Shown: positions 1,740 to 17,190 of the stretch, in pieces
Layout of the letters: the number at the start of each line of letters is the position of its first letter
Numbering within the stretch: the first letter of the stretch is position 1
NCBI GenBank assembly: GCA_039811505.1
Contig: JBDHYS010000001.1
Coordinates: forward strand, 1 to 30,087
Reading direction: 5' to 3'
Length of the DNA stretch: 30,087 nucleotides
DNA from: Paludibacteraceae bacterium
GTDB lineage: Bacteria; Bacteroidota; Bacteroidia; Bacteroidales; Paludibacteraceae
Translations under genes and position numbers: made by a program
The notes under the pieces: generated by a model
The model's input: only the letters and a program-made list of their open reading frames with translations
Database searches by the model: none
Told to the model about the DNA's origin: nothing

Positions 1740-1751
1740 AATCAACGCAAC

Positions 1752-3449
1752 ATGAAAAAGATAATAAATAAAATTTTAATACTAACATTAAGTGCTTTCA
1801 CATTAAGCTCTTGTCAGGATTTCTTAGAACAACCACCTTATGCGATATTGGCAGAAGACGATATGAACGGGGTGATGCAAATAGAAAATCTATGTATCTC
1901 TGCATACGCAGGAATTGGCAATGATGAAATTAATCGTCCTCTAAGTCTTTGGGGTTACGGAAATGTTCGTTCTGATGATGCCTACAAAGGTGGAAATGAT
2001 CAGAATGACGGAGAACCGCTCCATTTTTTAGAAATATCTTCTCCTTCAATTGCAAATGAAACGTGGTTTAATGATGTGTTTTGGTATCGAAATTATGTTG
2101 TAATTTCGCGTATTAATTCAGCATTACGCGCCTTGGATAATATTACAGAAGCTGAGATGCCAAATAAAGTTGTTCGTCAAGCTGAAATGCGTTTCTTGCG
2201 TGGGCACATGCACTTTATTCAGAAAATTATTTTTAAACAAATCCCTTACATTGTAGAAACAATGACGCCCGAAGACATTGCTAACACATCGAACGTAGCA
2301 CTATCGAATGATGAATTATGGCAAAAAATTGTAGATGATTTCGATTTTGCTCGTAAAAATCTACCGGCATCACAACCACAAATTGGGCGAGCAAATAAAT
2401 TTGCCGCTACTGCATATTTAGCAAAGGCGTATCTTTATAAAGCATATCGTCAAGATGAAGCTCACAATGTAACTGAAATTAATAAAGCAGATTTACAAAA
2501 AGTAATTGAATTCGCTGATGAAGTTATCGCATCTCCTTACAGACTGGAAAATGATTTTGCAAACAACTTTCTTCCGGGTGAATATGAAAATGGTGTGGAA
2601 GCATTATTCTCCGTACAGTATTCACAAGAAGATGGAACGACATTTGGACGACTTAATATGGGTTGTGCATTGACAACTCCAACTCCGGGTGGTGATTTCA
2701 ACAAACCAAGTCAAAGTTTAGTAAATGCATTTGTAACAAAAAATGGTATTCCTGATTTTGACGGTTATAACACATCAGATTTCAATGAATCAGCCAACAA
2801 AGTAGATCCTCGTCTTTATCACACTGTTGCAATGCCGAGGAAACCTTATAAATATACAGATTTGATTTTTGAAAATTCTGAGTATTTTACAACATCTCGT
2901 AACCCGTCAATGTATGGAAACTATTCTTCATTAAAAGAAAATGTAGATCCGAAAAGCCAATATTACGTAAAAACAGGTCCTTGGTATGCCAATTCAAAAA
3001 ACTGGATTGTATTACGTTATGCCGATGTTTTATTATTCAAAGCCGAAGCTTTGATTGAAACTGGACAATTCTCAGAAGCTCGTCCTTTGATTAATCAGCT
3101 ACGCAATCGTGCCAAAGCAAGCACAGCGATGATAAGTTTTGCCAATTCACAATTTGAAATTAGAGAATACAGTGCAAGTGAATGGAGTGAAAGTTTTGCT
3201 CGTCAAGCACTTCGTTGGGAGCGTAGAGTTGAGATGGCAATGGAAGGCAGTAGGTTTTTTGATTTGGTTCGTTGGGGAATTACAGACCAAACAATAAATG
3301 CTTATTATAGCAAAGAAAAAGCGAAACACAGCTATTATAATAATGCTTTATTTGTGAAAAACAAAAATGAATACAGTCCTATTCCTGTTCAACAAATTAA
3401 TTTTAGCAAAGGAATTTATAAGCAAAATCATGGTTTTCAAACTAATTAA
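1752..3449 (+). CDS. susD: SusD/RagB-family lipoprotein, BT1762-like fructan-binding SusD
   Basis: SPII signal (TLSSC|QD). SusD motifs AEMRFLRGHMHF, VLRYADVLLFKAEALIE and ERRVEMAMEGSRFFDLVRWG. Segments such as VRSDDAYKGG, LAKAYLYKAYRQD, KPSQSLVNAF and SLKENVDP match BT1762 as I recall it. Confidence 0.95.
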   Translation: MKKIINKILILTLSAFTLSSCQDFLEQPPYAILAEDDMNGVMQIENLCISAYAGIGNDEINRPLSLWGYGNVRSDDAYKGGNDQNDGEPLHFLEISSPSIANETWFNDVFWYRNYVVISRINSALRALDNITEAEMPNKVVRQAEMRFLRGHMHFIQKIIFKQIPYIVETMTPEDIANTSNVALSNDELWQKIVDDFDFARKNLPASQPQIGRANKFAATAYLAKAYLYKAYRQDEAHNVTEINKADLQKVIEFADEVIASPYRLENDFANNFLPGEYENGVEALFSVQYSQEDGTTFGRLNMGCALTTPTPGGDFNKPSQSLVNAFVTKNGIPDFDGYNTSDFNESANKVDPRLYHTVAMPRKPYKYTDLIFENSEYFTTSRNPSMYGNYSSLKENVDPKSQYYVKTGPWYANSKNWIVLRYADVLLFKAEALIETGQFSEARPLINQLRNRAKASTAMISFANSQFEIREYSASEWSESFARQALRWERRVEMAMEGSRFFDLVRWGITDQTINAYYSKEKAKHSYYNNALFVKNKNEYSPIPVQQINFSKGIYKQNHGFQTN

Positions 3450-3462
3450 ATCAAATTGAATT

Positions 3463-4578
3463 ATGAAAAAGACATTTTATTATATCATCGCAACATTCAT
3501 TACAATTCTAACTTTTGTTGCTTGTGAAAATGAGAGAGAGACATTGGATATGTCTGGTGATGTGGATATTCACTCGTTCTCTATCAATGGAGTTAAAGGT
3601 GTTATCAATCCTGAAAATTCGATTATCAATGTTATAATGCCAAATACTACGGATTTAAAATCTCTTTCTCCTCAAATTGAAATTGGAGCAGGTGCTAAAA
3701 TTTCACCGGCAATCGGAGAGAATATTGATTTTTCAAATTCGATGAAAAAAGGTTCGGAAATAATATACACTGTATCCAATAACGATTTGTATCAACGATA
3801 TAAAGTTATTGTGGATGTAGCCCGTGCAAAAATCACAAAATTCCGTATTGGAACAATAGAAGGAAAAATTAACGAAGAAGCAAAAACTGTTAGAATCTAT
3901 TTACCAGTAGGAACAAACGTTACTGCATTAGTACCCATTATTGAATACACAAATGGAGCAGACATTTCTCCTGAAAATGGTGCTTCTGTCGATTTCACAA
4001 ATCCAGTTTCCTATAAATTGACACTTGGCGGTTCTGAATTTGTGTATTTGGTAAAAGTAATTTTAGGCGAAGAACCAAAACCTGAGATAATTATTTTTAA
4101 CGGAGAAGATGTTTCACCAACATGGGCAAGTTTGGCTGCAAGTGTAGAAAGCCCATATCCAAATCACAAAAAAGAGGGTATAAATACTTATGCTGTTTGT
4201 GCTTCTATTATGAAAAATGGTGAAGATACAGATAATGGCGGTAAACCTTGGTCGGGTGGTGCTTTGTGGAATGCTTATAAAGTCAATATCGATCCAAAAG
4301 TTTACGGTAGTTTTTCCATTATGATATTAAAAGGAGTAGCGGGTGATGTCCAATTAGAAATCCAATCAGATGGAGAACAAAATAAGGATTGGCTTAAAGT
4401 CTGGTATTCGGAAGAGAATTTAGGACAATGGCAAAAATTGGTTTTCAAAATACCGGAAGGACGAACAGCCGTAATAAATAATATATTAGTAGCTCCTCAT
4501 TGTCATGATGCCGGCAAACCCGTTCCATTTGTAACTCAACGTATGTATTGGGATGAGTTAATTGCAATTCCAAAATAA
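3463..4578 (+). CDS. Surface glycan-binding lipoprotein (SGBP): two Ig-like N-terminal domains plus a C-terminal ~160-aa CBM-like module
   Basis: SPII signal (TFVAC|ENERE) with acidic residues after the Cys, consistent with surface export. Two repeats of the ISP..G..IDF motif (AKISPAIGENIDFSN, ADISPENGASVDFTNPV) resemble the recalled BT1761 N-terminus. It lies directly after susD. Confidence 0.85.
   Translation: MKKTFYYIIATFITILTFVACENERETLDMSGDVDIHSFSINGVKGVINPENSIINVIMPNTTDLKSLSPQIEIGAGAKISPAIGENIDFSNSMKKGSEIIYTVSNNDLYQRYKVIVDVARAKITKFRIGTIEGKINEEAKTVRIYLPVGTNVTALVPIIEYTNGADISPENGASVDFTNPVSYKLTLGGSEFVYLVKVILGEEPKPEIIIFNGEDVSPTWASLAASVESPYPNHKKEGINTYAVCASIMKNGEDTDNGGKPWSGGALWNAYKVNIDPKVYGSFSIMILKGVAGDVQLEIQSDGEQNKDWLKVWYSEENLGQWQKLVFKIPEGRTAVINNILVAPHCHDAGKPVPFVTQRMYWDELIAIPK
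4087..4575 (+). repeat. CBM-like module, diverged copy D (C-terminal domain of the SGBP)
   Basis: Shares ordered motifs with copies A-C: NGED, WSGG, KGVAGDVQLEIQ (vs KNVAGTVRLELQ), GQWQKLVF (vs GTWQKLEF), ILVAP (vs LLIAP) and RMYWDELIA (vs RCFWDEVEA). Confidence 0.8.
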
Positions 4579-4586
4579 TTAAATAA

Positions 4587-4621
4587 TTTCTTTGCCAAAG
4601 TTTAACACTTTGGCAAAGAAA
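4587..4621 (+). promoter_or_regulatory. Perfect 15-bp intergenic stem-loop without a U-tract (possible mRNA-stabilising or processing element)
   Basis: TTTCTTTGCCAAAGT (4587-4601), loop TTAAC, ACTTTGGCAAAGAAA (4607-4621). It is followed by an A-run rather than a T-run. The hairpin is seen directly; its function is inferred. Confidence 0.6.
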
Positions 4622-4634
4622 AAAACTATTCACA

Positions 4635-6197
4635 ATGAAAATGAACACTTTATTTCTAATGATTTTTACGGTATTCTTTGGAGGGTGTAAAGAAGAACTA
4701 ACTCCTAATATCGAAAAACCAAAAATTGACACTACGCTTAATTATCGAACGCCATCATCTTTAAGTCAAGCGTATGAAACTTTCTTCAAACCTGTAAATG
4801 CAGAAACAGGAGATCCAATGCCTTATTACAACGAGTCGGATCAAATGTATTATATAAACTTTCTGCTTGGAAATTTTTCAGGTTATCCAAAAGGTGGAAT
4901 TTATCTGACGAAAACTAAAGATTTCGCACAATTTCTACCTGTTTCAGCTCAAATCCTGACAGGGGAAAATAGTGATAACGACAAAGGTATTGGTACCGGC
5001 TCTTGTATTAAAAAAGATAATGTATATCATTTTTTCTATACAGGATTTAATAATAATCCTATGCCGTCAGTTGCAATGAAAGCGACAAGCAATATGCCGT
5101 CAGGAGTATGGACAAAAGCTCCTTCGATGATAATAGGAGCACCTGCGTCTTATGACAAAGGAGAATTTCGTGATCCACATGTTTATTGGGATGAAACCCG
5201 TAATAAATACGTGATGCTTGTAGGAAGCCGCAACGGTGGGAAAGCTACAATTGCACGTTTTCAATCGGATGATTTGGACACTTGGCAACAAATAGAAGGC
5301 ATTGCAGCAACAACCTCAAATAATCCTAAGATATACGAAGTAGAAACGGACACTTGGATTGCGGAATGTCCCGATATTTTTAAAATGGGGGACAAATGGT
5401 ATTTGGTATTTTCAAGATTGGACAGAGACGATCACCGTAAAACATTTTACCGTATTGCTGATAATCCGAACGGACCATGGCGAAAGTGCAGTGATGAAAA
5501 AGGACACCATGAAACTTTTGATGGCTTGTATCTTTACGCCGCCAAAACGGTTTCAGACGGAACCAATCGCTACGTTTCAGGCTGGGCTTCATCGGGTCAG
5601 GAGCGTCAATCCAATGGAGAATTGCATTGGGGCGGAATGTTGGTAACACACAAATTAATCCAACAAGCTAATGGCAAATTATATCCAACAATCCCAGATG
5701 CTGTAAATGCAAAATTTTCAAAAGCAGTGGAATATAAAGACATAAAACAGATTGGGAGTGTTTCAGGAAATGGCAACAGTTTTACATTGCAAAATGGAGG
5801 GAAAGTTGTATTTAATCGAAATTTATCATCAGTAAAGATTGAAATGAAAATCGATGCTTCGCAAGCTCAAAGAAAATTTGGAATTGCATTTGGTGCTCAC
5901 GACAATCAATCAGACACATATAATTTGACTTTTGATTTGAGCAATGCAAACAAATACAATACCCCCGCACTTTTTATGTATCATTATGACAAAGAATATA
6001 ATTTTACTCCACTTATTGTTCCGGAAAACAAACAATTTGATGTCAAGATAATTATAGAACGTCAAGTTTGTGTGATGTATGTAAATGGAAATGTTGCATT
6101 TACCAATCATATTTCGAATATGGAACAAAATCCTTGGATGATATTTGCGGATGAAGGTGCGGTTAAAATTTCGAATATAAAGATTTTTAAACAATAA
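4635..6197 (+). CDS. GH32 endo-fructanase (BT1760-like, probably endo-levanase), surface lipoprotein, with C-terminal beta-sandwich
   Basis: SPII signal (FFGGC|KEE). Catalytic motifs GDPMP (nucleophile Asp), FRDP and ECPD are intact. GIGTG, YAAKTVSDGTNRY, WGGMLV and ERQVCVMYVNG..AFTNHI parallel BT1760 as recalled. Confidence 0.88.
   Translation: MKMNTLFLMIFTVFFGGCKEELTPNIEKPKIDTTLNYRTPSSLSQAYETFFKPVNAETGDPMPYYNESDQMYYINFLLGNFSGYPKGGIYLTKTKDFAQFLPVSAQILTGENSDNDKGIGTGSCIKKDNVYHFFYTGFNNNPMPSVAMKATSNMPSGVWTKAPSMIIGAPASYDKGEFRDPHVYWDETRNKYVMLVGSRNGGKATIARFQSDDLDTWQQIEGIAATTSNNPKIYEVETDTWIAECPDIFKMGDKWYLVFSRLDRDDHRKTFYRIADNPNGPWRKCSDEKGHHETFDGLYLYAAKTVSDGTNRYVSGWASSGQERQSNGELHWGGMLVTHKLIQQANGKLYPTIPDAVNAKFSKAVEYKDIKQIGSVSGNGNSFTLQNGGKVVFNRNLSSVKIEMKIDASQAQRKFGIAFGAHDNQSDTYNLTFDLSNANKYNTPALFMYHYDKEYNFTPLIVPENKQFDVKIIIERQVCVMYVNGNVAFTNHISNMEQNPWMIFADEGAVKISNIKIFKQ
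4779..4834 (+). repeat. 56-bp identical block shared with 6364..6419 (covers the GDPMP nucleophile motif)
   Basis: Direct comparison: ACTTTCTTCAAACCTGTAAATGCAGAAACAGGAGATCCAATGCCTTATTACAACGA occurs at both sites, offset 1585 bp. Confidence 0.9.
5148..6094 (+). repeat. 947-bp direct repeat, copy 1 (identical by eye to 6733..7679)
   Basis: Line-by-line comparison found no mismatch between the g/t difference at 5147/6732 and the t/a difference at 6095/7680. The shadow ORFs 5359..5646 / 6944..7231 and 5380..5649 / 6965..7234 are also identical. Confidence 0.92.
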
Positions 6198-6213
6198 ATA
6201 TTATATCTTTCAA

Positions 6214-8457
6214 ATGATGAAAAAAGGGATTTTCTTTCTATTCATTATAGTGAATGTGTTTGTGATTGGTGCAAATAGTCTAACCTTTGGAAATGTTGAT
6301 TATTCAGGAATCGACACTTCATTGGATTATTATTCACCAACCTCAGCAAGTTTGGGCTATCAGACTTTCTTCAAACCTGTAAATGCAGAAACAGGAGATC
6401 CAATGCCTTATTACAACGAATCGGAACGTATGTATTATGTTTACTTTCTTTTGGGAAATTTTTCGGGTTATCCAAAAGGTGGAATTTATCGGACAAAAAC
6501 AAAGGATTTTGCTCAATTCCAGCCTGTTTTATCTCAGATTCTTACGGGAGAAGGTTATGATATAGATTCTCACATCGGTGCAGGTTCTGCTATAAAGAAA
6601 GGAAAATCCCATTATTTCTTTTATACCGGATTTAACAATAGTCTTAATCCTTCAATAGTTACCAAAGCAGTTTTAGAAGATTTATCAGATAAATGGTTGA
6701 AAGAGCAAACATTTGTGATAAATGCACCTGCTTCTTATGACAAAGGAGAATTTCGTGATCCACATGTTTATTGGGATGAAACCCGTAATAAATACGTGAT
6801 GCTTGTAGGAAGCCGCAACGGTGGGAAAGCTACAATTGCACGTTTTCAATCGGATGATTTGGACACTTGGCAACAAATAGAAGGCATTGCAGCAACAACC
6901 TCAAATAATCCTAAGATATACGAAGTAGAAACGGACACTTGGATTGCGGAATGTCCCGATATTTTTAAAATGGGGGACAAATGGTATTTGGTATTTTCAA
7001 GATTGGACAGAGACGATCACCGTAAAACATTTTACCGTATTGCTGATAATCCGAACGGACCATGGCGAAAGTGCAGTGATGAAAAAGGACACCATGAAAC
7101 TTTTGATGGCTTGTATCTTTACGCCGCCAAAACGGTTTCAGACGGAACCAATCGCTACGTTTCAGGCTGGGCTTCATCGGGTCAGGAGCGTCAATCCAAT
7201 GGAGAATTGCATTGGGGCGGAATGTTGGTAACACACAAATTAATCCAACAAGCTAATGGCAAATTATATCCAACAATCCCAGATGCTGTAAATGCAAAAT
7301 TTTCAAAAGCAGTGGAATATAAAGACATAAAACAGATTGGGAGTGTTTCAGGAAATGGCAACAGTTTTACATTGCAAAATGGAGGGAAAGTTGTATTTAA
7401 TCGAAATTTATCATCAGTAAAGATTGAAATGAAAATCGATGCTTCGCAAGCTCAAAGAAAATTTGGAATTGCATTTGGTGCTCACGACAATCAATCAGAC
7501 ACATATAATTTGACTTTTGATTTGAGCAATGCAAACAAATACAATACCCCCGCACTTTTTATGTATCATTATGACAAAGAATATAATTTTACTCCACTTA
7601 TTGTTCCGGAAAACAAACAATTTGATGTCAAGATAATTATAGAACGTCAAGTTTGTGTGATGTATGTAAATGGAAATGTAGCATTTACCAATCACATTTC
7701 AAATATGGAGCAAAATCCTTGGATGATTTTTGCGGATGAAGGTGTAGTTAAATTTTCGGATATAAAGATTTTTAAACAAGATGAAACACCAACTTCTGGT
7801 CAAAATTTAGTGATCAGTAACGGAGAAGATATTGGTGGAAATTGGTGGAAAGCCGGTTCGACTAATGTGGAAATTGTAGACTGGCATCCCAAAGACGGAA
7901 ATTCCACAAATAAAGCGATGACAATTTGGATAAGTAAAAACAGCGATGTTTGGTCTGGTGGAGGTTTAGGCGGTTTGAATATTGATGTAAATGCTTACAA
8001 CACGATTTCGATGTTAGTTTACAAGAATGTGGCTGGAACTGTACGATTGGAATTGCAAGATGGTGATGGAGAAAACAATAAGTTTTTTGTTTCTGCTGAT
8101 TATAATTCGCCAGGCACTTGGCAAAAATTGGAATTTCCGTTTCCTTCTGAAATGAAAAATATAAAAACACTTCTTATTGCACCTTTTATTGATTACGATT
8201 TATCTACCATTGTAGGCGAACAAAGTCGTTGCTTTTGGGATGAAGTAGAAGCTACTTATAAAATTCGAGCATCGGAAAATGTTTTGTTTGAAAACGATGA
8301 AATAGTTTCTTCTCAAATTTATTCCATAAATGGTACTTTCTTAGGTACATTTAATGAAATTGAACAACGACAACAACTTCCAAAAGGGATATATATTATA
8401 AAATCTACCCGTAAAAATGGTAGAATAACCGTTTCAAAAATGTATAACACAAAATAA
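6214..8457 (+). CDS. GH32 endo-fructanase paralogue with SPI signal, C-terminal CBM-like module and T9SS-type C-terminal sorting domain
   Basis: Cys-free signal peptide (MKKGIFFLFIIVNVFVIGA|NS). GDPMP/FRDP/ECPD intact. After IKIFKQ comes the linker DETPTSG, the module QNLVISNGED...WDEVEATYK, and a tail SQIYSINGTFL...LPKGIYIIKS...SKM resembling a type A T9SS CTD. Confidence 0.88.
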   Translation: MMKKGIFFLFIIVNVFVIGANSLTFGNVDYSGIDTSLDYYSPTSASLGYQTFFKPVNAETGDPMPYYNESERMYYVYFLLGNFSGYPKGGIYRTKTKDFAQFQPVLSQILTGEGYDIDSHIGAGSAIKKGKSHYFFYTGFNNSLNPSIVTKAVLEDLSDKWLKEQTFVINAPASYDKGEFRDPHVYWDETRNKYVMLVGSRNGGKATIARFQSDDLDTWQQIEGIAATTSNNPKIYEVETDTWIAECPDIFKMGDKWYLVFSRLDRDDHRKTFYRIADNPNGPWRKCSDEKGHHETFDGLYLYAAKTVSDGTNRYVSGWASSGQERQSNGELHWGGMLVTHKLIQQANGKLYPTIPDAVNAKFSKAVEYKDIKQIGSVSGNGNSFTLQNGGKVVFNRNLSSVKIEMKIDASQAQRKFGIAFGAHDNQSDTYNLTFDLSNANKYNTPALFMYHYDKEYNFTPLIVPENKQFDVKIIIERQVCVMYVNGNVAFTNHISNMEQNPWMIFADEGVVKFSDIKIFKQDETPTSGQNLVISNGEDIGGNWWKAGSTNVEIVDWHPKDGNSTNKAMTIWISKNSDVWSGGGLGGLNIDVNAYNTISMLVYKNVAGTVRLELQDGDGENNKFFVSADYNSPGTWQKLEFPFPSEMKNIKTLLIAPFIDYDLSTIVGEQSRCFWDEVEATYKIRASENVLFENDEIVSSQIYSINGTFLGTFNEIEQRQQLPKGIYIIKSTRKNGRITVSKMYNTK
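6733..7679 (+). repeat. 947-bp direct repeat, copy 2
   Basis: Identical by eye to 5148..6094 at a constant offset of 1585 bp. Confidence 0.92.
7801..8262 (+). repeat. CBM-like module copy A (154 aa, fused to GH32)
   Basis: QNLVISNGED...RCFWDEVEATYK; 134/154 residues identical to copy B by hand count. Confidence 0.92.
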
Positions 8458-8478
8458 ATTTAATGTATAATTTAAAAA

Positions 8479-9207
8479 ATGAATAGTATGAAAATTAAGA
8501 TTTTACTTTTATCGATTGTATTGAGCGTATTATCAATAAATGCTCAAAATTTAGTAATTAGCAATGGTGAAGACACAGGATTGGGTTGGTGGCAAGCCGG
8601 TTCAACTGCTGTAGAAATTGTAGATTGGCATCCAAAAGATGGAAATCCAAGTGAAAAATCAATGACAATTTGGATCAGCACCAACAGCGATGTTTGGTCT
8701 GGTGGAGGTTTAGGCGGTTTGAATATTGATGTAACTACATACAACACAATTTCGGTGTTAGTTTACAAAAATGTGGCAGGAACGGTGCGATTGGAATTGC
8801 AAGATGGTGATGGAGAAAACAATAAGTTTTTTGTTTCTGCTGATTATAATACGCCGGGCACTTGGCAAAAATTGGAATTTCCGATTCCGGCTGAAATGGG
8901 CAATATAAAAACACTTCTTATTGCACCTTTTATTGATTACGATTTGTCATCTATCGTTGGAGAGCAAAGTCGTTGTTTTTGGGATGATGTGGAAGCTTTT
9001 TATAAAGTTCCGGCATCCATAAATTCTCTGTTTGAGAATAAAGAAATTGTATCATCTCAGATTTATTCAATCAACGGACATTTATTACAAACTATTTATG
9101 GTAATGAAAATGTGATGCAACTTCAACTTCCAAAAGGATTTTACATTGTGAAATCGACAGATATAAATGGAAATATAACTACGGACAAGATGTTATATGC
9201 AAAATAG
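8479..9207 (+). CDS. Predicted T9SS cargo: signal peptide + CBM-like module (copy B, 8545..9006) + CTD; no catalytic domain
   Basis: SPI signal MKIKILLLSIVLSVLSINA|Q, with Gln at +1 as is typical of Bacteroidota SPI proteins; the true start may be the Met at 8488. Tail SQIYSINGHLLQ...LPKGFYIVKS...KM. Confidence 0.85.
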   Translation: MNSMKIKILLLSIVLSVLSINAQNLVISNGEDTGLGWWQAGSTAVEIVDWHPKDGNPSEKSMTIWISTNSDVWSGGGLGGLNIDVTTYNTISVLVYKNVAGTVRLELQDGDGENNKFFVSADYNTPGTWQKLEFPIPAEMGNIKTLLIAPFIDYDLSSIVGEQSRCFWDDVEAFYKVPASINSLFENKEIVSSQIYSINGHLLQTIYGNENVMQLQLPKGFYIVKSTDINGNITTDKMLYAK

Positions 9208-9245
9208 CAAGCAATTATTTTTTAAATTTAAGAAAACGAGATAGT

Positions 9246-9971
9246 ATGAAAAAGATAACTTTATTTTTAATGTTAATTTTAGGCGTGTTAACAATCAACG
9301 CCCAAAATTTAGTGATAAGTAATGGTGAAGAAGATACAGGATTGGGTTGGTGGCAAGCCGGATCAACTAATGTTGAAATTGTAGATTGGCATCCAAAAGA
9401 TGGAAATCCAAGTGAAAAATCAATGACAATTTGGATTAGTCCCGATAGCGATGTTTGGTCTGGTGGTGGTTTAGGAGGTTTGAATATTAATGTAAATACA
9501 TATAACGCAATTTCGGTGTTAGTTTACAAAAATGTGGCAGGAACGGTGCGTTTAGAATTGCAAGATGGAGTAAATAATTATTTTGTTTCAGCAAATTACA
9601 ATACGCCAAGCACATGGCAAAAACTTGAATTTGATATTCCATCTGAAATGGGTAATATCCAAACGCTCCTTATCGCTCCGTTTATAGATTATGATCTGTC
9701 AACGATAACCAATGATGGAGATGTACATCAGAGCCGTTGTTTTTGGGATGAAGTTGAAGCTTTTTATAAAATACCTACTCCTGTTTCTGAAATAAAGAAT
9801 GAAAATAGAATCATTTCAACACAGATTTATTCCATAACAGGAAGCTTATTGCAAACATTGGATACTAACGCAACCATTTATAAAACATCTCTTCCAAAAG
9901 GAATTTATATTATTAAAAGTATTGATGAGTTGAATAATGAAGTTACATCAAAAGTTGTAAAAACATATTAA
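9246..9971 (+). CDS. Predicted T9SS cargo: signal peptide + CBM-like module (copy C, 9303..9770) + CTD; no catalytic domain
   Basis: SPI signal MKKITLFLMLILGVLTINA|Q. The module is highly similar to copies A and B. Tail TQIYSITGSLLQ...LPKGIYIIKS...SKVV. Confidence 0.85.
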   Translation: MKKITLFLMLILGVLTINAQNLVISNGEEDTGLGWWQAGSTNVEIVDWHPKDGNPSEKSMTIWISPDSDVWSGGGLGGLNINVNTYNAISVLVYKNVAGTVRLELQDGVNNYFVSANYNTPSTWQKLEFDIPSEMGNIQTLLIAPFIDYDLSTITNDGDVHQSRCFWDEVEAFYKIPTPVSEIKNENRIISTQIYSITGSLLQTLDTNATIYKTSLPKGIYIIKSIDELNNEVTSKVVKTY

Positions 9972-9991
9972 AATCTTTATTTATAAATAGC

Positions 9992-12205
9992 ATGAAAAAT
10001 AGGAATAAAATAAGCATTTTCTTTTTGATTTTCACCATTTTAGTAACTTCTTGTTCATCAAAAGATATTATTATTGACGATTTTGAGTCTGGTAATTATG
10101 ACAAATGGACGGTTGAAGGTGAAGCATTTGGAAATACGCCTGCTCCGTATCAGGAAGATCAAAAAAAACAGAGTAATGAAGGTGGAAATTATTATGCCGA
10201 CAGTTTTGGAGGTAACGACAGTTTGTTTGGGACACTTACATCAAAATCTTTTGTTATTGAGCGTAATTTTATCAATTTTTTGATTGGTGGTGGAAAAAGC
10301 GACAATATGTACATTGAACTTTTGATTGAAGGCAACACAGTTTTGAAAAGTAACTCATTAATCACAAGCGGAGAGATGAATTGGGTCGCATGGAATGTGA
10401 AAATCTATAAAGGTAAAGAGGCTCAAATACGAATTGTGGATAATCAAGGCGGAGGTTGGGGGCATTTTATGGTCGATGAAATTAGTCAAAGCAGTAAATC
10501 GAAAAGCGTAATATCCATCGATTATGAACTTTCTTTTGATGTGAAAAATAATTATCTACTTGTGCCAATTGAAGATAATGCGCCGGAATTAGAAATACAA
10601 TTATCAGCAAATGATAAAAATATTGGTGTTCCAATGTACATTCGTGTTGCAAAATCGAAAATTGATTATTGGATTCCTATTGATGTGTCTGATTATAAAG
10701 GGGAAAAAGTAACATTGAAATTTAGTTTATTAAATAAAAACGATGTGGGCTATTCGCAGATAAAACAATCCGATACATTTGGGTTTGATAGCAACGAAAA
10801 TTTCCGTCCGCTCTATCATTTTCTACCTGAATACGGCTGGATGAATGATCCAAACGGAATGGTTTTTTACGATGGAGAATATCATCTTTTTTATCAATAT
10901 AATCCATATGGTTCTAAATGGGCAAATATGCACTGGGGACACGCTGTTTCCAAGGATTTGGTCTCTTGGGAACATTTACCCGTAGCATTAGAGCCTGATT
11001 CACTCGGTTCAATATTCTCAGGTAGTGCAATTATTGATACGGAAAATACGGCTGGTTTTGGTAAAAATGCCATGATTGTAATCTATACTTCTGCCGGGAA
11101 AACTCAAACTCAATCCATAGCTTATAGTTTGGATAAAGGAAGAACTTTTACAAAATATGATCAAAATCCTGTTTTGGAAGATCCCACTATTGCAGATTTT
11201 CGCGATCCGAAAGTTTTCTGGCATTCTGAAAGTAATAAATGGGTTATGTCTTTGGCAACGCAACAAACAATTACTTTTTATGGATCCAAAAACTTAAAAC
11301 AATGGGAAAAATTAAGCGAATTTGGAGAAGGAATTGGAGCTCACAGCGGAGTTTGGGAATGTCCAGATTTATTTTCACTTAAATATAACGGAAAAACTAA
11401 ATGGGTATTATTTGTAAGTATTAATCCGGGCGGTCCAAATGGTGGAAGTGCAACACAATATTTTATAGGTGATTTTGATGGCAAAACATTCAAAGCAGAT
11501 AAATTGCCCTATCCACTTTGGCTTGATTACGGAAGAGATAATTATGCCGGAGTTACGTGGAGCAATGTTCCTGAAAGCGATGGTCGTAAAATTTTTATTG
11601 GATGGATGAATAATTGGGATTACGCAAATGATGTGCCGCCCATACATTTTTCAAGTGCAAACACACTGCCACGCGATCTTAAATTGGCACATAATGGAAC
11701 TCATTTAGTTGTTGCCAATCCGCCCGTAAAGGAGATGTTAAATCTTCGTAAAGAAAAAAACACTTTTGAAACTATAAAAGTATACAAACCACACCTGATA
11801 AATAATTTGTCAAAAGGAAACAGTGGAATATGTGAAATTGAAATGACAATTCAACCAAAAAGCTCGACATCTTTCAGTTTTGAGTTGTCAAATTCAAAAG
11901 GCGAGAAAACAAAATTTAATTTTGATATGGCAAAAAGAATATTTAGTGTAGATAGGTCAAAAAGTGGAATTATCAATTTTAACACAACTTTCGCATCGAA
12001 AATCAGTGAATCTCCTTTGGTGAAAAAAGACAAGTATATTATTCGGTTGTTTGTGGATAAACTTTCGATAGAATGTTTTATAAATGACGGTGAGTTGGTG
12101 CAAACAAACACCATTTTCCCAACAGAATCGTATCATTCATTGGAGTTTGATGCTGACTCTGAAATAAACATTGAAAATTTAACAATATATCAACTGAAAA
12201 AATAA
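9992..12205 (+). CDS. GH32 exo-type beta-fructofuranosidase/levanase lipoprotein with an N-terminal CBM38-like domain and a DUF4980-like domain
   Basis: SPII signal (LVTSC|SS). Canonical GH32 motifs WMNDPNG, HWGHAVSKDL, FSGS, FRDPKVFW, WECPDLF and DYGRDNYA. N-terminal DFESG...W.VEGEAFG...IGGG...DNQGGGWGHF.VD domain. Confidence 0.92.
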   Translation: MKNRNKISIFFLIFTILVTSCSSKDIIIDDFESGNYDKWTVEGEAFGNTPAPYQEDQKKQSNEGGNYYADSFGGNDSLFGTLTSKSFVIERNFINFLIGGGKSDNMYIELLIEGNTVLKSNSLITSGEMNWVAWNVKIYKGKEAQIRIVDNQGGGWGHFMVDEISQSSKSKSVISIDYELSFDVKNNYLLVPIEDNAPELEIQLSANDKNIGVPMYIRVAKSKIDYWIPIDVSDYKGEKVTLKFSLLNKNDVGYSQIKQSDTFGFDSNENFRPLYHFLPEYGWMNDPNGMVFYDGEYHLFYQYNPYGSKWANMHWGHAVSKDLVSWEHLPVALEPDSLGSIFSGSAIIDTENTAGFGKNAMIVIYTSAGKTQTQSIAYSLDKGRTFTKYDQNPVLEDPTIADFRDPKVFWHSESNKWVMSLATQQTITFYGSKNLKQWEKLSEFGEGIGAHSGVWECPDLFSLKYNGKTKWVLFVSINPGGPNGGSATQYFIGDFDGKTFKADKLPYPLWLDYGRDNYAGVTWSNVPESDGRKIFIGWMNNWDYANDVPPIHFSSANTLPRDLKLAHNGTHLVVANPPVKEMLNLRKEKNTFETIKVYKPHLINNLSKGNSGICEIEMTIQPKSSTSFSFELSNSKGEKTKFNFDMAKRIFSVDRSKSGIINFNTTFASKISESPLVKKDKYIIRLFVDKLSIECFINDGELVQTNTIFPTESYHSLEFDADSEINIENLTIYQLKK

Positions 12206-12250
12206 AAAACTAAAATCTCATTTTCTTGAAATCTTGAAATAATAAATATT

Positions 12251-13450
12251 ATGAATAAAAAAAGTAACCTTTCCGTTCTGATTCCCATTATGTTGGCGTT
12301 TTTCGCAATGGGAGCTGTTGATATGGTTGGAATTGCATCAAATTATGTAAAAAACGACTTGCAGTTAAGCGACACGATTGCAAATCTTCTACCTTCGATG
12401 GTTTTTCTATGGTTTTTCGTCCTTTCAGTTCCTACCGGTTTGCTAATGAATAAAATTGGTAGGCAGAAAACGGTGCAACTTTCTTTGGCTGTAACGGTGC
12501 TTTCACTACTTATTCCACTTTTAGCCTATCTTCCAAACATTGGAGGCAATATGGAGTTTGTGATAATGTTGATTGCGTTTGCACTTTTAGGAATCGGAAA
12601 TACCATTATGCAGGTATCTCTTAATCCTCTTATTTCCAATATCGTGTCAGATGATAAATTTGCATCCACTTTAACTTTTGGGCAATTTATTAAAGCGATT
12701 GCTTCATTTGGAGCACCGTTTATTGCTTCTTTTGCGGCAGTGAAATTTGGAGATTGGAAATTGTTGTTTCCTATTTATGCAGCGTTCACTATTTTGGCTT
12801 TAATCTTATTGTCCACCATAAAAATAGAGGAACAACCCTACACTACAAAAAGTAATTTTGCAAAATCACTCAATCTGCTCAAAAATCCCACTATTTTACT
12901 GTTCTTTTTTGGAATTATGGCACATGTGGGAATTGACGTTGGCATCAATACAACGGCACCAAAAATCCTTAATGGTATAAACGGAATGGATTTGCAAACA
13001 GGTGGAATGTTTGGTTTGGGTGCGGGTTTTGCTACAAGTATCTATTTTGTTTTCAGGATGATTGGAGGTTTTTCGGGTACATTTATCTTGGCAAAAGGAA
13101 AATACACCAATTTCTGGATAATTAGTGTACTTCTAATGGTGCTTTCGGTTGTTGGATTCTTAGCTTTCCAAAACGAAATTCTATTGTATGTTTCACTTGC
13201 ATTGGTTGGTTTTGGAAATTCGAATATTTTCCCAATGGTGTTTACAAAAGCTGTTCAAACTTTACCGGAGCGTGGAAATGAAGTGTCTGGATTAATGATT
13301 ATGGGTATTGTTTCGGGTGCAATCTTTCCTCTTTTTATGGGAATTGCGTCAGATGCTCTGCAAAGTCAATCGGGAGCCATTCTTGTAACAGCTGGTGCTG
13401 TGATTTATTTGGCTGCATTAACATTTAAATTGCAAACAATTAGAAAATAG
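12251..13450 (+). CDS. MFS sugar (fructose) permease, FucP/GluP-like, BT1758-like
   Basis: Multiple hydrophobic helices; motifs FFAMGAVDMVGIASNYVK, LLGIGNTIMQVSLNP and GFGNSNIFP; located between a GH32 and fructokinase. Confidence 0.92.
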   Translation: MNKKSNLSVLIPIMLAFFAMGAVDMVGIASNYVKNDLQLSDTIANLLPSMVFLWFFVLSVPTGLLMNKIGRQKTVQLSLAVTVLSLLIPLLAYLPNIGGNMEFVIMLIAFALLGIGNTIMQVSLNPLISNIVSDDKFASTLTFGQFIKAIASFGAPFIASFAAVKFGDWKLLFPIYAAFTILALILLSTIKIEEQPYTTKSNFAKSLNLLKNPTILLFFFGIMAHVGIDVGINTTAPKILNGINGMDLQTGGMFGLGAGFATSIYFVFRMIGGFSGTFILAKGKYTNFWIISVLLMVLSVVGFLAFQNEILLYVSLALVGFGNSNIFPMVFTKAVQTLPERGNEVSGLMIMGIVSGAIFPLFMGIASDALQSQSGAILVTAGAVIYLAALTFKLQTIRK

Positions 13451-13462
13451 CCAACTTAAAGG

Positions 13463-13470
13463 CAAATATA
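13463..13470 (-). promoter_or_regulatory. Possible antisense sigma-A -7 element (TATATTTG) pointing into the MFS gene
   Basis: The + strand reads GCAAATATA at 13462-13470, i.e. TATATTTGC on the - strand, matching the Bacteroidota TAnnTTTG consensus. A motif match only. Confidence 0.3.
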
Positions 13471-13477
13471 AAATATT

Positions 13478-14362
13478 ATGAGAAATATTATTGTAGGTAT
13501 TGGAGAAATACTTTGGGATGTTTTTCCTGAACGTAAAGTTTTAGGTGGTGCACCGGCAAATTTCGCTTATCACACTTCGCAATTTGGCTTTAATGGCTAT
13601 ACAATAAGTGCCGTTGGAAATGATTCATTTGGAAAAGAAATCATTGATTCTTTAGAAGAAAAAAAATTAAATTATCTTATTGAAACAACCGAATTTCCAA
13701 CGGGTACAGTTCAAGTTACGCTTGACGAAAACGGTATTCCGCAATATGAAATTTGTGAAAATGTAGCTTGGGACAATATTCCCTTCACATCGCAAACTGC
13801 AAGTTTGACACAAAATACGGTTGCAGTGTGTTTTGGTTCACTTGCTCAAAGAAGTAAAGTTTCAAAAGAATCAATCAGAAGTTTTTTGAATGCAGTTTCA
13901 GATGATTGTTTGAAGATTTTTGACATTAATCTACGTCAGCATTTTTACACAAAAGCTCTTATTGAAGAATCTCTTAATTTAGCAAATATATTGAAAATAA
14001 ATGACGAGGAAGTTGTGATCGTAGCAAATCTTTTTGGATGGAATGGGTTAAGTGAAAAAGATGTTTGCTTAGAATTGATGAAAAGCTTCAATCTTAATTT
14101 AGTTATCCTAACAAAAGGCACAGAAGGAAGTTTTGTGTACAACCATAAAGAATGGTCTTTTCACCCAACACCAAAAGTTCAAGTAGCCGACACAGTTGGA
14201 GCGGGCGATTCATTTACAGCTACATTTGTGGCTGCTTATCTTCGGGGAAAAAGTATTGTTGAATCACACCAATTAGCGGTTGAGGTTTCAGCTTTTGTTT
14301 GTACACAGCACGGAGCAATGCCAACACTTCCTGAATCGTATTTAAAATTGTTCAATAAGTAA
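13478..14362 (+). CDS. PfkB-family carbohydrate kinase, fructokinase (BT1757-like)
   Basis: GEILWDVF, GGAPANFA, FDINLR, LKINDEE and the PfkB signature DTVGAGDSF; fructan PUL context. Confidence 0.94.
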   Translation: MRNIIVGIGEILWDVFPERKVLGGAPANFAYHTSQFGFNGYTISAVGNDSFGKEIIDSLEEKKLNYLIETTEFPTGTVQVTLDENGIPQYEICENVAWDNIPFTSQTASLTQNTVAVCFGSLAQRSKVSKESIRSFLNAVSDDCLKIFDINLRQHFYTKALIEESLNLANILKINDEEVVIVANLFGWNGLSEKDVCLELMKSFNLNLVILTKGTEGSFVYNHKEWSFHPTPKVQVADTVGAGDSFTATFVAAYLRGKSIVESHQLAVEVSAFVCTQHGAMPTLPESYLKLFNK

Positions 14363-14385
14363 ACATTTTTTTCAAACTTTGTGAT

Positions 14386-14393
14386 TATCTTTG
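14386..14393 (+). promoter_or_regulatory. Sigma-A -7 element (TATCTTTG) upstream of the HTCS gene
   Basis: Exact TAnnTTTG match 34 nt before the ATG at 14428; suggests the regulator has its own promoter. Confidence 0.6.
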
Positions 14394-14427
14394 TGGGAAG
14401 AAAGAGTGTATTATTTCTCAAAATACA

Positions 14428-17190
14428 ATGAAAAACAGATACAAGAAAATTCTATTCCTACCATTTATACTGCTTTTGCTCCTTTCTTGTAACAATGGAA
14501 CAAAGATAGATTATGTCGTTGGTGTATCACAATGCAGCGATGACGAATGGAGGCAAGTTCAAAATCAAGGAATGTTACGTGAAACTGCTTTTTATCCCAA
14601 TCTGAAATTGGATATCAAAACAGTAAAAGATGATAGTAAAAAGCAGATTCACGATATTCGCACATTTATTGACCAAAAAGTAGATTTGCTTATTATTTCT
14701 CCAAATGAAGCAGAGGTTTTGACACCCATTGTGGAAGAAGCATACGATAAAGGGATTCCGGTAATTTTAATTGAAAGAAAAACAACAAGTGATAAATATA
14801 CAGCATTTGTGGGTGCAGATAATTTGGAAGTGGGACGCACTGCCGGAGCGTACATTGTGGACTTGTTGAAAGGAAAAGGCAATGTAATTGAAATTCGGGG
14901 ATTAAAGGGCTCTACATCAGATGCAGGTCGTCATCAGGGATTTATAGAAGAAATCAAGAAATTTCCCAATATAAAAGTTGTGGGAGAATATGCAACCGAA
15001 TGGTATCGTCAAGATGCAGAACGGATAATGAATAGTTTCCCTTCCGACAAATATCCCGATGTGGATTTGGTTTTTGCAATGAGCGATCGAATGGCATTGG
15101 GAGCTTACAATGTGGTCTCAAAAAAGGAAGGGAAAAAACCTGTTATTATTGGAATTGATGCACTTCCCGGCGACAACAATGGAATTACCAACATTATCAA
15201 AGGAAAAATTACGGCTTCGATTATTTATCCAACCGGTGGTGATAGAATTATTCAGACTGCAATGGGTATTTTAGAAGGACGTCCGTATCAGAAAGAAAAT
15301 ATCCTTTCCACTTTTTTTGTAGATCAAAGTAACGCTCGTGTTATCAATATGCAAAATGAGCAGTTGATAGAACATCAAGCCAAACTGAAACGTATGAATG
15401 AGATGCTCAATCACAGTGTCGAGCTTTATTCCAATCAGCAAATAATGTTTTACGGAACGATTCTTATTTTAATATTAATCAGCATAACTTTATTGGTCTC
15501 TTTTTTTGCATATCGTTCTAAAAATAAAGCAAACAAACTACTCGAAAAACAAAATAGAGAAATTAAACATCAAGCGGAAGAATTGGCAATCCAAAAAGAA
15601 CAATTAATCAAATTATCAATGGATTTAGAGGAAGCAACGCAAGAAAAACTCATATTCTTCACAAATATTTCTCACGAATTAAAAACACCTTTATCGCTTG
15701 TTTTAGGTCCGATTGAAACGCTTGCCGATTCTCCTAATTTAATGAAAGAACAGTATGATTTATTGAATTTAAGTATTCGGAACAGCGAGCGTTTACTCCG
15801 ACTTATCAATGAAATTATTGAATTTCGTACTTTCGATAACAATAAAATGGTCGGTTATTTTTCGGAAGCGGATATGAAGCAATTCATTGAAGATTTAAAT
15901 ATTGTGTTCATCGATTATGCGAAACAGAAACGGGTGAGATTTTCTTTTTCTTCGGAAAAATCTGAATTTAAGATGTTTTTCGACAAGGAGAAAATGGAAA
16001 AAATCTATTATAATTTACTATCCAATGCTTTTAAGTTTGTGAACAATGAGGGCAATATTAATGTGTCCTTAACAGAAAAAGAGATTGATGGTACAAAACA
16101 TGCTCATTTGAGTGTGTTTAACAGTGGAAGTTCCATTCCCAAAGAAGAAATTAACAATATTTTCAATCGTTTTTATAAAGTAAATCCACACGATACGGGA
16201 ACGGGAATTGGACTTGCATTAACCAATGCACTGATAAAAGTTCATGGAGGAAATATTTCTGTAGAAAGTTCAGAAGAATCTGGAACCACTTTTAGTGTTT
16301 TTCTCCCTATTCATCAAGAAAATATTGTTGAAAAGAAAGAACAAGACGTAGCATTTTATAAAAATTACACTCAAAGTCGCATTCTTCTTGAAGAACAACA
16401 AAATGAATCTCATCTATCAGAAGATGTTCCACTTGACGATAATAAACCTTTGGTGCTTGTGATTGAGGATAATGCAGATATGCGGCGTTATTTGGATTTT
16501 ATCTTAAAAGATGATTACAACGTGATTGAGGAAAAAGATGGAGAAAAAGGGATAAAAAGTGCAATAAAATACATTCCGGATGTGATTATCAGCGATGTGA
16601 TGATGCCCGTAAAAGATGGTTTCGAGCTTTGTCAAACATTGAAATCGCATTTTACGACAAGTCATATTCCGATTATTTTGCTGACGGCAAACTCACTTGA
16701 CGAACAAAAAGCCATTGGATTTGAAAGCGGTGCTGATGCGTATATTCCGAAACCTTTCAATGCCGAATTGTTTAAAATTCGCTTGCGGAAATTGATTGAA
16801 AACCGTGAAAAAATTAAAAAAGCCTTTGCAGGAAGTTTAATTGATGAATCAAAAAAAACAAGTCTTGGTGAATTAGACCAGCATTTTATAGATAAATTCT
16901 CTAAAATCATCGAGAAAAACATCTCGAAATCGGAATTGTCTGTGGATGAAGTGGCAAAAGAAATGGGTATATCAAGAGTTCAATTATATCGGAAAGTGAA
17001 ATCCATAACCAATTCATCACCAAATGAATTAATCAGAATTATCCGATTGAAACAAGCAAAATTGCTTTTAGCCACAAACACCAAAACTATTTCAGAAATA
17101 GCATACGAAACGGGCTTTTCTTCTCCGTCCTATTTTTCTAAATGCTTTAAAGAACTTTTCAATGAAAATCCGACAGATTATTTGAAGTAA
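14428..17190 (+). CDS. Hybrid two-component sensor/regulator with a periplasmic sugar-binding (RbsB-like) sensor domain, BT1754-like
   Basis: PBP domain (GVSQCSDDEWR, GADNLEVG, GIDALPG), a TM helix, HisKA (FFTNISHELKTPL), HATPase (NLLSNAFKF, GTGIGLAL), receiver (IEDN, SDVMMP) and AraC HTH (GFSSPSYFSKCFK). Confidence 0.95.
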   Translation: MKNRYKKILFLPFILLLLLSCNNGTKIDYVVGVSQCSDDEWRQVQNQGMLRETAFYPNLKLDIKTVKDDSKKQIHDIRTFIDQKVDLLIISPNEAEVLTPIVEEAYDKGIPVILIERKTTSDKYTAFVGADNLEVGRTAGAYIVDLLKGKGNVIEIRGLKGSTSDAGRHQGFIEEIKKFPNIKVVGEYATEWYRQDAERIMNSFPSDKYPDVDLVFAMSDRMALGAYNVVSKKEGKKPVIIGIDALPGDNNGITNIIKGKITASIIYPTGGDRIIQTAMGILEGRPYQKENILSTFFVDQSNARVINMQNEQLIEHQAKLKRMNEMLNHSVELYSNQQIMFYGTILILILISITLLVSFFAYRSKNKANKLLEKQNREIKHQAEELAIQKEQLIKLSMDLEEATQEKLIFFTNISHELKTPLSLVLGPIETLADSPNLMKEQYDLLNLSIRNSERLLRLINEIIEFRTFDNNKMVGYFSEADMKQFIEDLNIVFIDYAKQKRVRFSFSSEKSEFKMFFDKEKMEKIYYNLLSNAFKFVNNEGNINVSLTEKEIDGTKHAHLSVFNSGSSIPKEEINNIFNRFYKVNPHDTGTGIGLALTNALIKVHGGNISVESSEESGTTFSVFLPIHQENIVEKKEQDVAFYKNYTQSRILLEEQQNESHLSEDVPLDDNKPLVLVIEDNADMRRYLDFILKDDYNVIEEKDGEKGIKSAIKYIPDVIISDVMMPVKDGFELCQTLKSHFTTSHIPIILLTANSLDEQKAIGFESGADAYIPKPFNAELFKIRLRKLIENREKIKKAFAGSLIDESKKTSLGELDQHFIDKFSKIIEKNISKSELSVDEVAKEMGISRVQLYRKVKSITNSSPNELIRIIRLKQAKLLLATNTKTISEIAYETGFSSPSYFSKCFKELFNENPTDYLK

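Follow-up and report, generated by a model that had tools for sequence, protein, structure and literature searches.

Domains described as binding fructans are CBM38, CBM66 and DUF4960 (PMC10076258), where CBM stands for carbohydrate-binding module. The last of these is found in BT1761 (SGBP-lev; structures 8a9y, 8aa0 and 8aa2), the surface glycan-binding protein (SGBP) of the Bacteroides thetaiotaomicron levan utilisome. Its C-terminal head projects from the cell, binds levan and can dock beside GH32 and SusD (PMC7618045); this head, the levan-binding DUF4960/PF16324 domain, has an alpha/beta fold in which helices accompany a central sheet (PMC7618045; PMC10076258). A second point of reference is X584 (PDB 8qx6), the fourth CBM of the laminarin SGBP of Christiangramia forsetii (Cf-SGBP). 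This domain, named "CBMxx" in the preprint and X584 in the title of its PDB entry, binds laminarin in affinity gels and in isothermal titration calorimetry and was crystallised with laminaritriose, according to the preprint (bioRxiv 10.1101/2023.09.07.556657). The window analysed in this work is a whole 30,087-bp contig (JBDHYS010000001.1) of the metagenome-assembled genome (MAG; 77% complete, 1.86 Mb) of a Paludibacteraceae bacterium. It contains a fructan polysaccharide utilisation locus (PUL), at bases 3-17190, in which a module of about 155 residues is used four times. We consider it likely that this module is a type-B beta-sandwich CBM forming, within the X584 superfamily, a clade restricted to fructan loci, and that it most likely binds the fructan of its locus, probably beta-2,6 levan.

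The four copies and their coordinates had been proposed in a first-pass annotation made from the DNA letters, and a hidden Markov model (HMM) of the module placed all four where they had been described (Table 1). Elsewhere in this 77%-complete genome the HMM found no further copy. The three architectures that had been proposed are real: a lipoprotein with two immunoglobulin (Ig)-like stalk domains followed by the module (copy D), a GH32 enzyme followed by the module and a sorting domain of the type IX secretion system (T9SS; copy A), and, twice, a signal peptide followed by the module and a T9SS domain (copies B and C). The annotated motifs were also found. NGE(E)D, WSGG, K.VAG.V.LE.Q, WQKL.F, (L/I)(I/V)AP and R..WD(E/D)..A are present in all four copies, WW.AG, DWHPKDGN and FIDY in the three T9SS-type copies (A-C), and PNHKKEGINT in the SGBP-tip copy D. 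The T9SS-type copies are 79-86% identical to one another in DNA, while the tip copy is about 50% identical to them; as proteins, the tip copy and one stand-alone copy share 31% identity (BLASTP E 7e-17).

We observed that no Pfam or NCBIfam family reached its cut-off for the module in scans of the four proteins or, for Pfam, of 60 family members as well. PF02018 (CBM_4_9) matched the window copies at 14-15 bits (E 0.027-0.065), below its 25.9-bit gathering cut-off, and there were sub-threshold matches in 10 of the 60 family members, up to E 1.8e-4. A sequence search of the PDB with the full-length SGBP (P0001) and with a profile of the four copies found no CBM for the module, 8qx6 included, at E up to 10. 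When the profile was built from 60 modules, it matched one PDB sequence, 8qx6_A (E 9.4e-9, 38 bits, over 97 of 156 positions), and the motif NP..GIN.S is common to the two.

A profile search of 1.84 billion representatives gave 583 matches at E <= 1e-3, 39 of them at E <= 1e-30. The close set (per-domain E below 1e-20) comprises stand-alone modules with a T9SS tail, tandems of 2-4 copies, a DUF5018 stalk with the module, classical GH32N+GH32C enzymes with the module, an alpha/beta-hydrolase esterase with 1-3 modules and an FGE-sulfatase-like domain with the module. The fusions to classical GH32 enzymes (P0205, P0156) are independent ones. The stand-alone type accounts for 111 clusters at 90% identity, mostly from Paludibacter MAGs and with no Pfam domain except the T9SS tail, and the SGBP type for at least 164 protein clusters, which are named 'hypothetical' or 'DUF5018'. 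Among 400 evenly drawn Bacteroidia species genomes we found no close member, just X584-like matches at E 1e-16 to 1e-20, so the clade is uncommon. Beyond the close set there is a halo of proteins in which 3-11 weaker repeats are found; most of these are T9SS cargo or have PKD stalks, and lack catalytic domains. As a profile of 47 halo domains matched 8qx6 over its full length (E 2.1e-23), the halo is X584-like. Single X584-like repeat proteins gave either no PDB match (P0183) or one at E 2e-5 (P0122), which indicated that the halo is diverse and that a profile of it was needed. The X584-like profile also matched CBM4 structures weakly (1gui, 5e-4; 1k42, 3e-3).

The 60-module profile and the 47-domain X584-like profile were then compared with hhalign, and they aligned at a probability of 99.9% (E 5e-33, 150 columns, 17% identity). 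An HMM of 133 halo domains gave the window copies scores of 68-79 bits across almost the whole of their length, although the halo had been picked by similarity to the module profile, which favours such scores. The 8qx6 match of the 60-module profile and the hhalign result make the module a distant homologue of a characterised CBM. Judged from sequence, the homology to X584 is clear and distant, and it does not by itself settle whether the two are one family in the CAZy sense. The X584 family is presumably CBM102 in CAZy, where CBM102 and CBM103 both exist. The first-pass annotation had suspected a kinship with the widespread NP.K.G.N domains of Bacteroidota, and by the profile match to 8qx6 and the hhalign result these NP..GIN domains are the X584 family. 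Its proposal of a candidate new CBM family held in part: the module has a characterised relative, and that much of the novelty is lost, while the specificity and the clade are possibly new.

An orphan CBM family, unrelated to any characterised one, would be in keeping with the missing Pfam family, with the failure of P0001 and the four-sequence profile to find a CBM in the PDB, and with the database names, all of which are 'hypothetical' or 'DUF5018'. This idea is refuted at the level of homology by the 8qx6 match and the hhalign probability, and the X584-like HMM scores also speak against it; we give it almost no credence.

The AlphaFold2 model of copy B (from a 16-sequence alignment) is an 11-strand beta-sandwich (pLDDT 88.3, pTM 0.85). 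In fold comparisons with Foldseek and VIA-align, the best solved match was again X584 8qx6 (Z 14.7, rmsd 2.6 over 140 residues). It heads an almost flat list, which continues with the mannanase CBM 1wky (Z 14.1), CBM22 (Z 13-14), CBM59 (Z 12-14), and CBM8, CBM11, CBM29 and a GH50 N-terminal module (Z 12-13.7). The CBMs in the list are of the type-B, galactose-binding-like group, and ESM Atlas matches were solely to unnamed or generic galactose-binding-like CBM clusters. The beta-sandwich CBM fold that had been suggested from the strand pattern is therefore borne out as a predicted structure, by the model and by the type-B CBMs among its matches.

MAM domains and complex I assembly factors also appear in the fold lists. 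Beta-sandwiches of this kind serve protein-protein contacts as well, and the module could on this basis be a protein-docking, spacer or surface-anchoring domain of outer-surface components instead of a glycan binder. We regard this as very unlikely: the module is situated at the distal tip of the SGBP and not at its membrane end, arrays of 2-4 tandem copies exist, as do fusions with unrelated enzymes, which is CBM-like behaviour, and the module is a sequence homologue of a proven CBM. From this behaviour and homology we infer that the module binds a glycan.

A maximum-likelihood tree was made of 128 domains, which included the close set, the window copies, the extra repeats of the same proteins and the X584-like domains. 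The tree split 73 fructan-locus rows from 55 X584-like rows (SH-aLRT 99, branch length 0.6), and all close-set and window copies were on the fructan-locus side of this branch. Within that side, the three T9SS-type copies fell in one subclade (25 rows) and the SGBP tip in another (33 rows, SH-aLRT 98), so the four copies are not all recent duplicates of each other. In P0003 numbering, the residues common to both clades are N..P..G.N, W73, G75, K97, V103, W129, L132, F134 and D169, which are probably structural. Specific to the fructan clade are G30, Y88, E106, Q108, Y123, Q130 and W168; the X584-like counterparts of E106, Q108, Q130 and W168 are K, E, E and F, respectively, and one His of the fructan clade is Asp in X584-like proteins. 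From strand periodicity alone, we infer that E106 and Q108 face the sheet surface. In the NP..GIN motif the Asn is kept in 81% and the Pro in 75% of the fructan clade, as against 99% for both in X584-like domains. In copies A-C (7801-9770) we noted Trp-His (DWHPKDGN) in place of this otherwise near-universal Asn-Pro.

X584 and the fructan-locus module are alike in their beta-sandwich type-B CBM fold and in the motifs NP..GIN.S, VyK, W..L.F and Y.D. Both are also typical of Bacteroidota, and are seen in SGBPs with Ig or PKD stalks, in tandem repeats, in enzymes and in T9SS cargo. They differ in that they share only about 17% identity, form separate, well-supported clades and carry different surface-strand residues (E106, Q108, Y88, Y123, Q130 and W168 in the fructan clade). 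Their partners also differ. In the excerpted text of the preprint, X584 goes with laminarin loci encoding GH16_3, GH17, GH30 and comparable enzymes, and GH32 is not mentioned there (bioRxiv 10.1101/2023.09.07.556657), whereas the module described here accompanies GH32 fructan loci in every informative case.

This association was observed when twelve relatives of different architectures were looked up. Ten were on informative contigs, the contig of P0125 was too short, and the domains of P0166 are on the X584-like side of the tree. GH32 genes adjoin the module gene in all ten informative loci, which cover the stand-alone, tandem, SGBP, GH32-fusion, esterase-fusion and FGE-sulfatase-fusion types. 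P0166 is itself a GH16 enzyme and has no GH32 neighbour. When 185,579 species genomes were scanned with three seed motifs from within the module, 80 loci of the SGBP type were obtained. A GH32 gene is present within 10 kb in 75 of these, and in all 58 loci of at least 15 kb; nearly all of the 58 also hold SusD, PfkB and a sensor. The first-pass annotation had asked whether homologues co-occur with GH32 PULs, and they do, in the ten varied loci as well as in the 58 long ones. Cultured carriers among the 80 belong to Sphingobacterium, Labilibaculum, Plebeiibacterium, Carboxylicivirga, Saccharicrinis and Thermophagus. Additional module-bearing open reading frames (ORFs), to a maximum of 3 ORFs and 5 modules, accompany the SGBP in about 30 of the 80 loci, mainly from Paludibacter and relatives. 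In Sphingobacterium and the Marinilabiliales-type genera, the copy in the SGBP is mostly the only one.

The SGBP itself could be compared directly with BT1761. By sequence, its stalk (residues 3-203 of P0001) is a homologue of the BT1761 stalk (phmmer against 8a9y_T, E 9.4e-23) and gives a weak DUF5018 match. A model of full-length P0001 (32-sequence alignment, pLDDT 89.8) has two Ig-like domains followed by the sandwich, and its best solved match in Foldseek was BT1761 8aa2_G (E 3.6e-16, 30% identity), over the stalk only. P0001 fits a BT1761-type SGBP in its Cys21 lipobox, in the position of its gene after SusD and in its two homologous Ig-like stalk domains; both proteins are lipoproteins encoded directly after SusD, in the same locus layout. 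The heads are different. BT1761 carries the alpha/beta DUF4960/PF16324 domain, whereas P0001 carries in the same place copy D, a 165-residue predicted all-beta sandwich with no match to PF16324. The simplest reading would be a head swap, a sandwich for DUF4960, that keeps the job of capturing the fructan of the locus. From the far end of its lipid-anchored two-Ig-domain stalk, the SGBP copy would take hold of polymer for the GH32 next to it and for the SusCD transporter.

Some of our observations weigh against a levan-binding module. The sole characterised relative, X584, binds laminarin and not fructan. The count of 80 loci is one of whole SGBPs, with a BT1761-like stalk that is typical of fructan loci, which makes it less than fully independent as evidence for the module; the independent part of the context evidence is the ten varied architectures. 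In some members the module has an esterase or an FGE-sulfatase-like domain as its fusion partner, and the ligand could be a decorated fructan or a co-occurring glycan. Lastly, the choice of levan over inulin depends solely on the BT1760-type GH32 and the BT1761-type stalk.

The characterised homologue and the fusions, which hint at targets beyond plain fructan, would both suit a module that has kept the beta-1,3-glucan/laminarin specificity, or that binds another non-fructan glycan accompanying fructans and keeps the fructan machinery attached to a composite substrate, for instance biofilm matrix or plant or algal debris. We consider this quite improbable. The 11 loci with Pfam-annotated genes showed no gene for GH16, GH17 or GH30, and GH32 was always present; the SGBP module replaces a proven levan-binding head; and the surface-strand positions differ between the clades (E106/Q108 against K/E, and Q130 against E). 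If the ligand is a fructan, it may also be of the inulin type (beta-2,1), or both types may be bound. The locus holds a classical GH32 with DUF4980 besides the BT1760-like enzymes, the module itself carries no sign of linkage, and related strains of B. thetaiotaomicron differ in fructan specificity via SusC/D, as the title of one study states (PMC5967196). An inulin-type or dual ligand nevertheless appears unlikely, as two GH32 genes of the locus encode the BT1760-like C-terminal domain PF16346 of the endo-levanase type, and as the SGBP stalk is BT1761-like. It is because of this enzyme type and this stalk that we favour levan as the probable ligand.

The fusions found in other fructan loci are worth describing in their own right. 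The esterase fusions (P0117, P0114, P0319, P0335) are of three types: three modules with an alpha/beta-hydrolase esterase (Abhydrolase_2/DLH/Esterase_PHB), one module with an esterase, and an SGBP stalk and the module joined to an SGNH/GDSL lipase-like domain. They may point to acylated fructans or a mixed substrate. In P0197 the partner of the module is an FGE-sulfatase-like domain, and its fructan locus further contains two GH32 genes, PfkB, a major facilitator superfamily (MFS) transporter and an SGBP with the levan-binding PF16324 domain. Among the ten informative loci, the one with the esterase fusion and the one with the FGE-sulfatase-like fusion both contain such a classical PF16324 levan-binding SGBP.

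We also compared the module with the other fructan-binding domains and with related folds. CBM66 (Bacillus subtilis SacC) and CBM38 (Paenibacillus CFTase) have the same presumed ligand class as the module and, like it, are GH32-attached and of beta-sandwich type (PMC10076258). The module had not been assignable to CBM66 at first pass, and indeed no CBM66 chain appeared in the PDB profile searches at E up to 10 or among the top 50 fold matches of copy B. CBM38 is a two-domain unit of about 350 residues (PMC10076258), whereas the module is a single domain of 155. No match to CBM38 was found in any Pfam or PDB search here, although it was not established that either library holds a CBM38 model or structure. 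The DUF4960/PF16324 levan-binding domain gave no Pfam match in the module. The CBM4/CBM9/CBM16/CBM22 group (PF02018) shares the general fold and differs in motifs, ligands and genomic contexts. A full-text search of the literature from 2022 onward on levan-, fructan- and inulin-binding domains found no description of this module.

The remaining three copies are in proteins predicted to leave the cell by the T9SS. The two stand-alone proteins scored above the 23-bit cut-off of TIGR04183 (26.2 and 27.4 bits). The GH32 fusion was below it (20.2 bits), and its tail aligns clearly with the tails of both stand-alone proteins. The genome has at least 20 other T9SS-tailed ORFs (PF18962) above cut-off. 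Proteins bearing a type A T9SS sorting domain either end up fixed to the cell surface or are released. Appended to the second GH32, the module would have the role of a classical CBM, keeping the T9SS-exported enzyme in contact with its substrate. The two small proteins of about 240 residues, each a module with a sorting tail, would be exported by the same route and serve, surface-fixed or released, as additional fructan binders without catalytic activity. Both have a predicted signal peptide (8479-8550 and 9246-9305) that ends in Ala-Gln, and a mature N-terminal Gln fits the pyroglutamate 'Q-rule' described for secreted Bacteroidota proteins.

Table 1. Features of the fructan PUL in the 30,087-bp window (nucleotide positions; residues refer to the encoded protein)
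Feature	Position	Strand	Support
SusC-like TonB-dependent transporter, 5' end cut by contig edge	3..1739	+	PF00593 E 1.5e-12
SusD-like lipoprotein	1752..3449	+	PF07980 E 2e-42, PF14322
SGBP gene (P0001, 371 aa, nt 3463-4578), first part: lipoprotein signal (Cys21) and two Ig-like stalk domains	3463..4080	+	
Module copy D, distal SGBP tip (P0001 207-371)	4081..4575	+	module HMM
GH32 lipoprotein (P0005), BT1760 endo-levanase type, without module	4635..6197	+	PF00251, PF16346
GH32 (BT1760-like) catalytic and C-terminal domains of T9SS-type paralogue P0002	6214..7797	+	PF00251 E 1.7e-26, PF16346 E 3.4e-17
Module copy A, appended to GH32 (P0002 529-684)	7798..8265	+	module HMM
T9SS C-terminal sorting domain of GH32-module protein P0002, weak	8281..8457	+	TIGR04183 20.2 bits, E 4e-4
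Stand-alone protein 1 (P0003): signal peptide, module copy B (nt 8542-9009; residues 22-177), T9SS type A C-terminal domain	8479..9207	+	TIGR04183 26.2 bits
Stand-alone protein 2 (P0004): signal peptide, module copy C (nt 9300-9773; residues 19-176), T9SS type A C-terminal domain	9246..9971	+	TIGR04183 27.4 bits
Classical GH32 (P0006) with DUF4980, GH32N and GH32C	9992..12205	+	PF00251 E 2e-96
MFS sugar transporter and PfkB fructokinase-type kinase	12251..14362	+	
Hybrid two-component regulator with periplasmic sugar-binding domain	14428..17190	+	Peripla_BP_4, HisKA, HATPase_c, Response_reg, HTH_AraC

The nearest relatives of the proteins of this locus are mainly from Paludibacter MAGs. The GH32 at 4635-6197 and the GH32 part of 6214-8457 are 86% identical overall, and between about residues 175 and 510 the two proteins are fully identical. 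This stretch could stem from gene conversion, from a partial duplication that is very recent or from a collapse in the assembly. The classical GH32 has about 180 residues at its N-terminus (residues 1-180, nt 9992-10540), ahead of DUF4980, without a Pfam match, which may be a further accessory domain. The hybrid regulator that closes the locus presumably resembles the fructose sensor BT1754 in its domain make-up.

Together, these results lead us to conclude that the module is best classed as a fructan-locus clade of the X584-like family with a predicted new specificity. A more far-reaching proposal, which we hold to be possible and yet rather doubtful, is that the clade represents a CBM truly specific for levan/fructan, which arose on the laminarin-binding scaffold of X584 and deserves a CAZy family or subfamily of its own. 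Besides SusD and DUF4960, Bacteroidota loci would then possess a third unrelated way to capture fructan, one interchangeable with DUF4960 as an SGBP head and deployed by the T9SS as free or surface-fixed 'SGBP-like' binders outside the SusCD utilisome.

If fructan binding is true, the module would be a fourth kind of fructan-binding domain after CBM38, CBM66 and DUF4960, and the annotation of fructan loci would improve. The candidate is common in environmental Bacteroidota, with at least 164 SGBP-type clusters and at least 80 species genomes, cultured genera included. It would also show one CBM scaffold switching from beta-glucan to fructan, it would offer a natural case of a head swap for testing what the SGBP head contributes to the utilisome, and the modules could serve as levan probes. 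Finally, the T9SS-exported copies raise the question of whether these bacteria capture glycans by means beyond their lipoprotein SGBPs.

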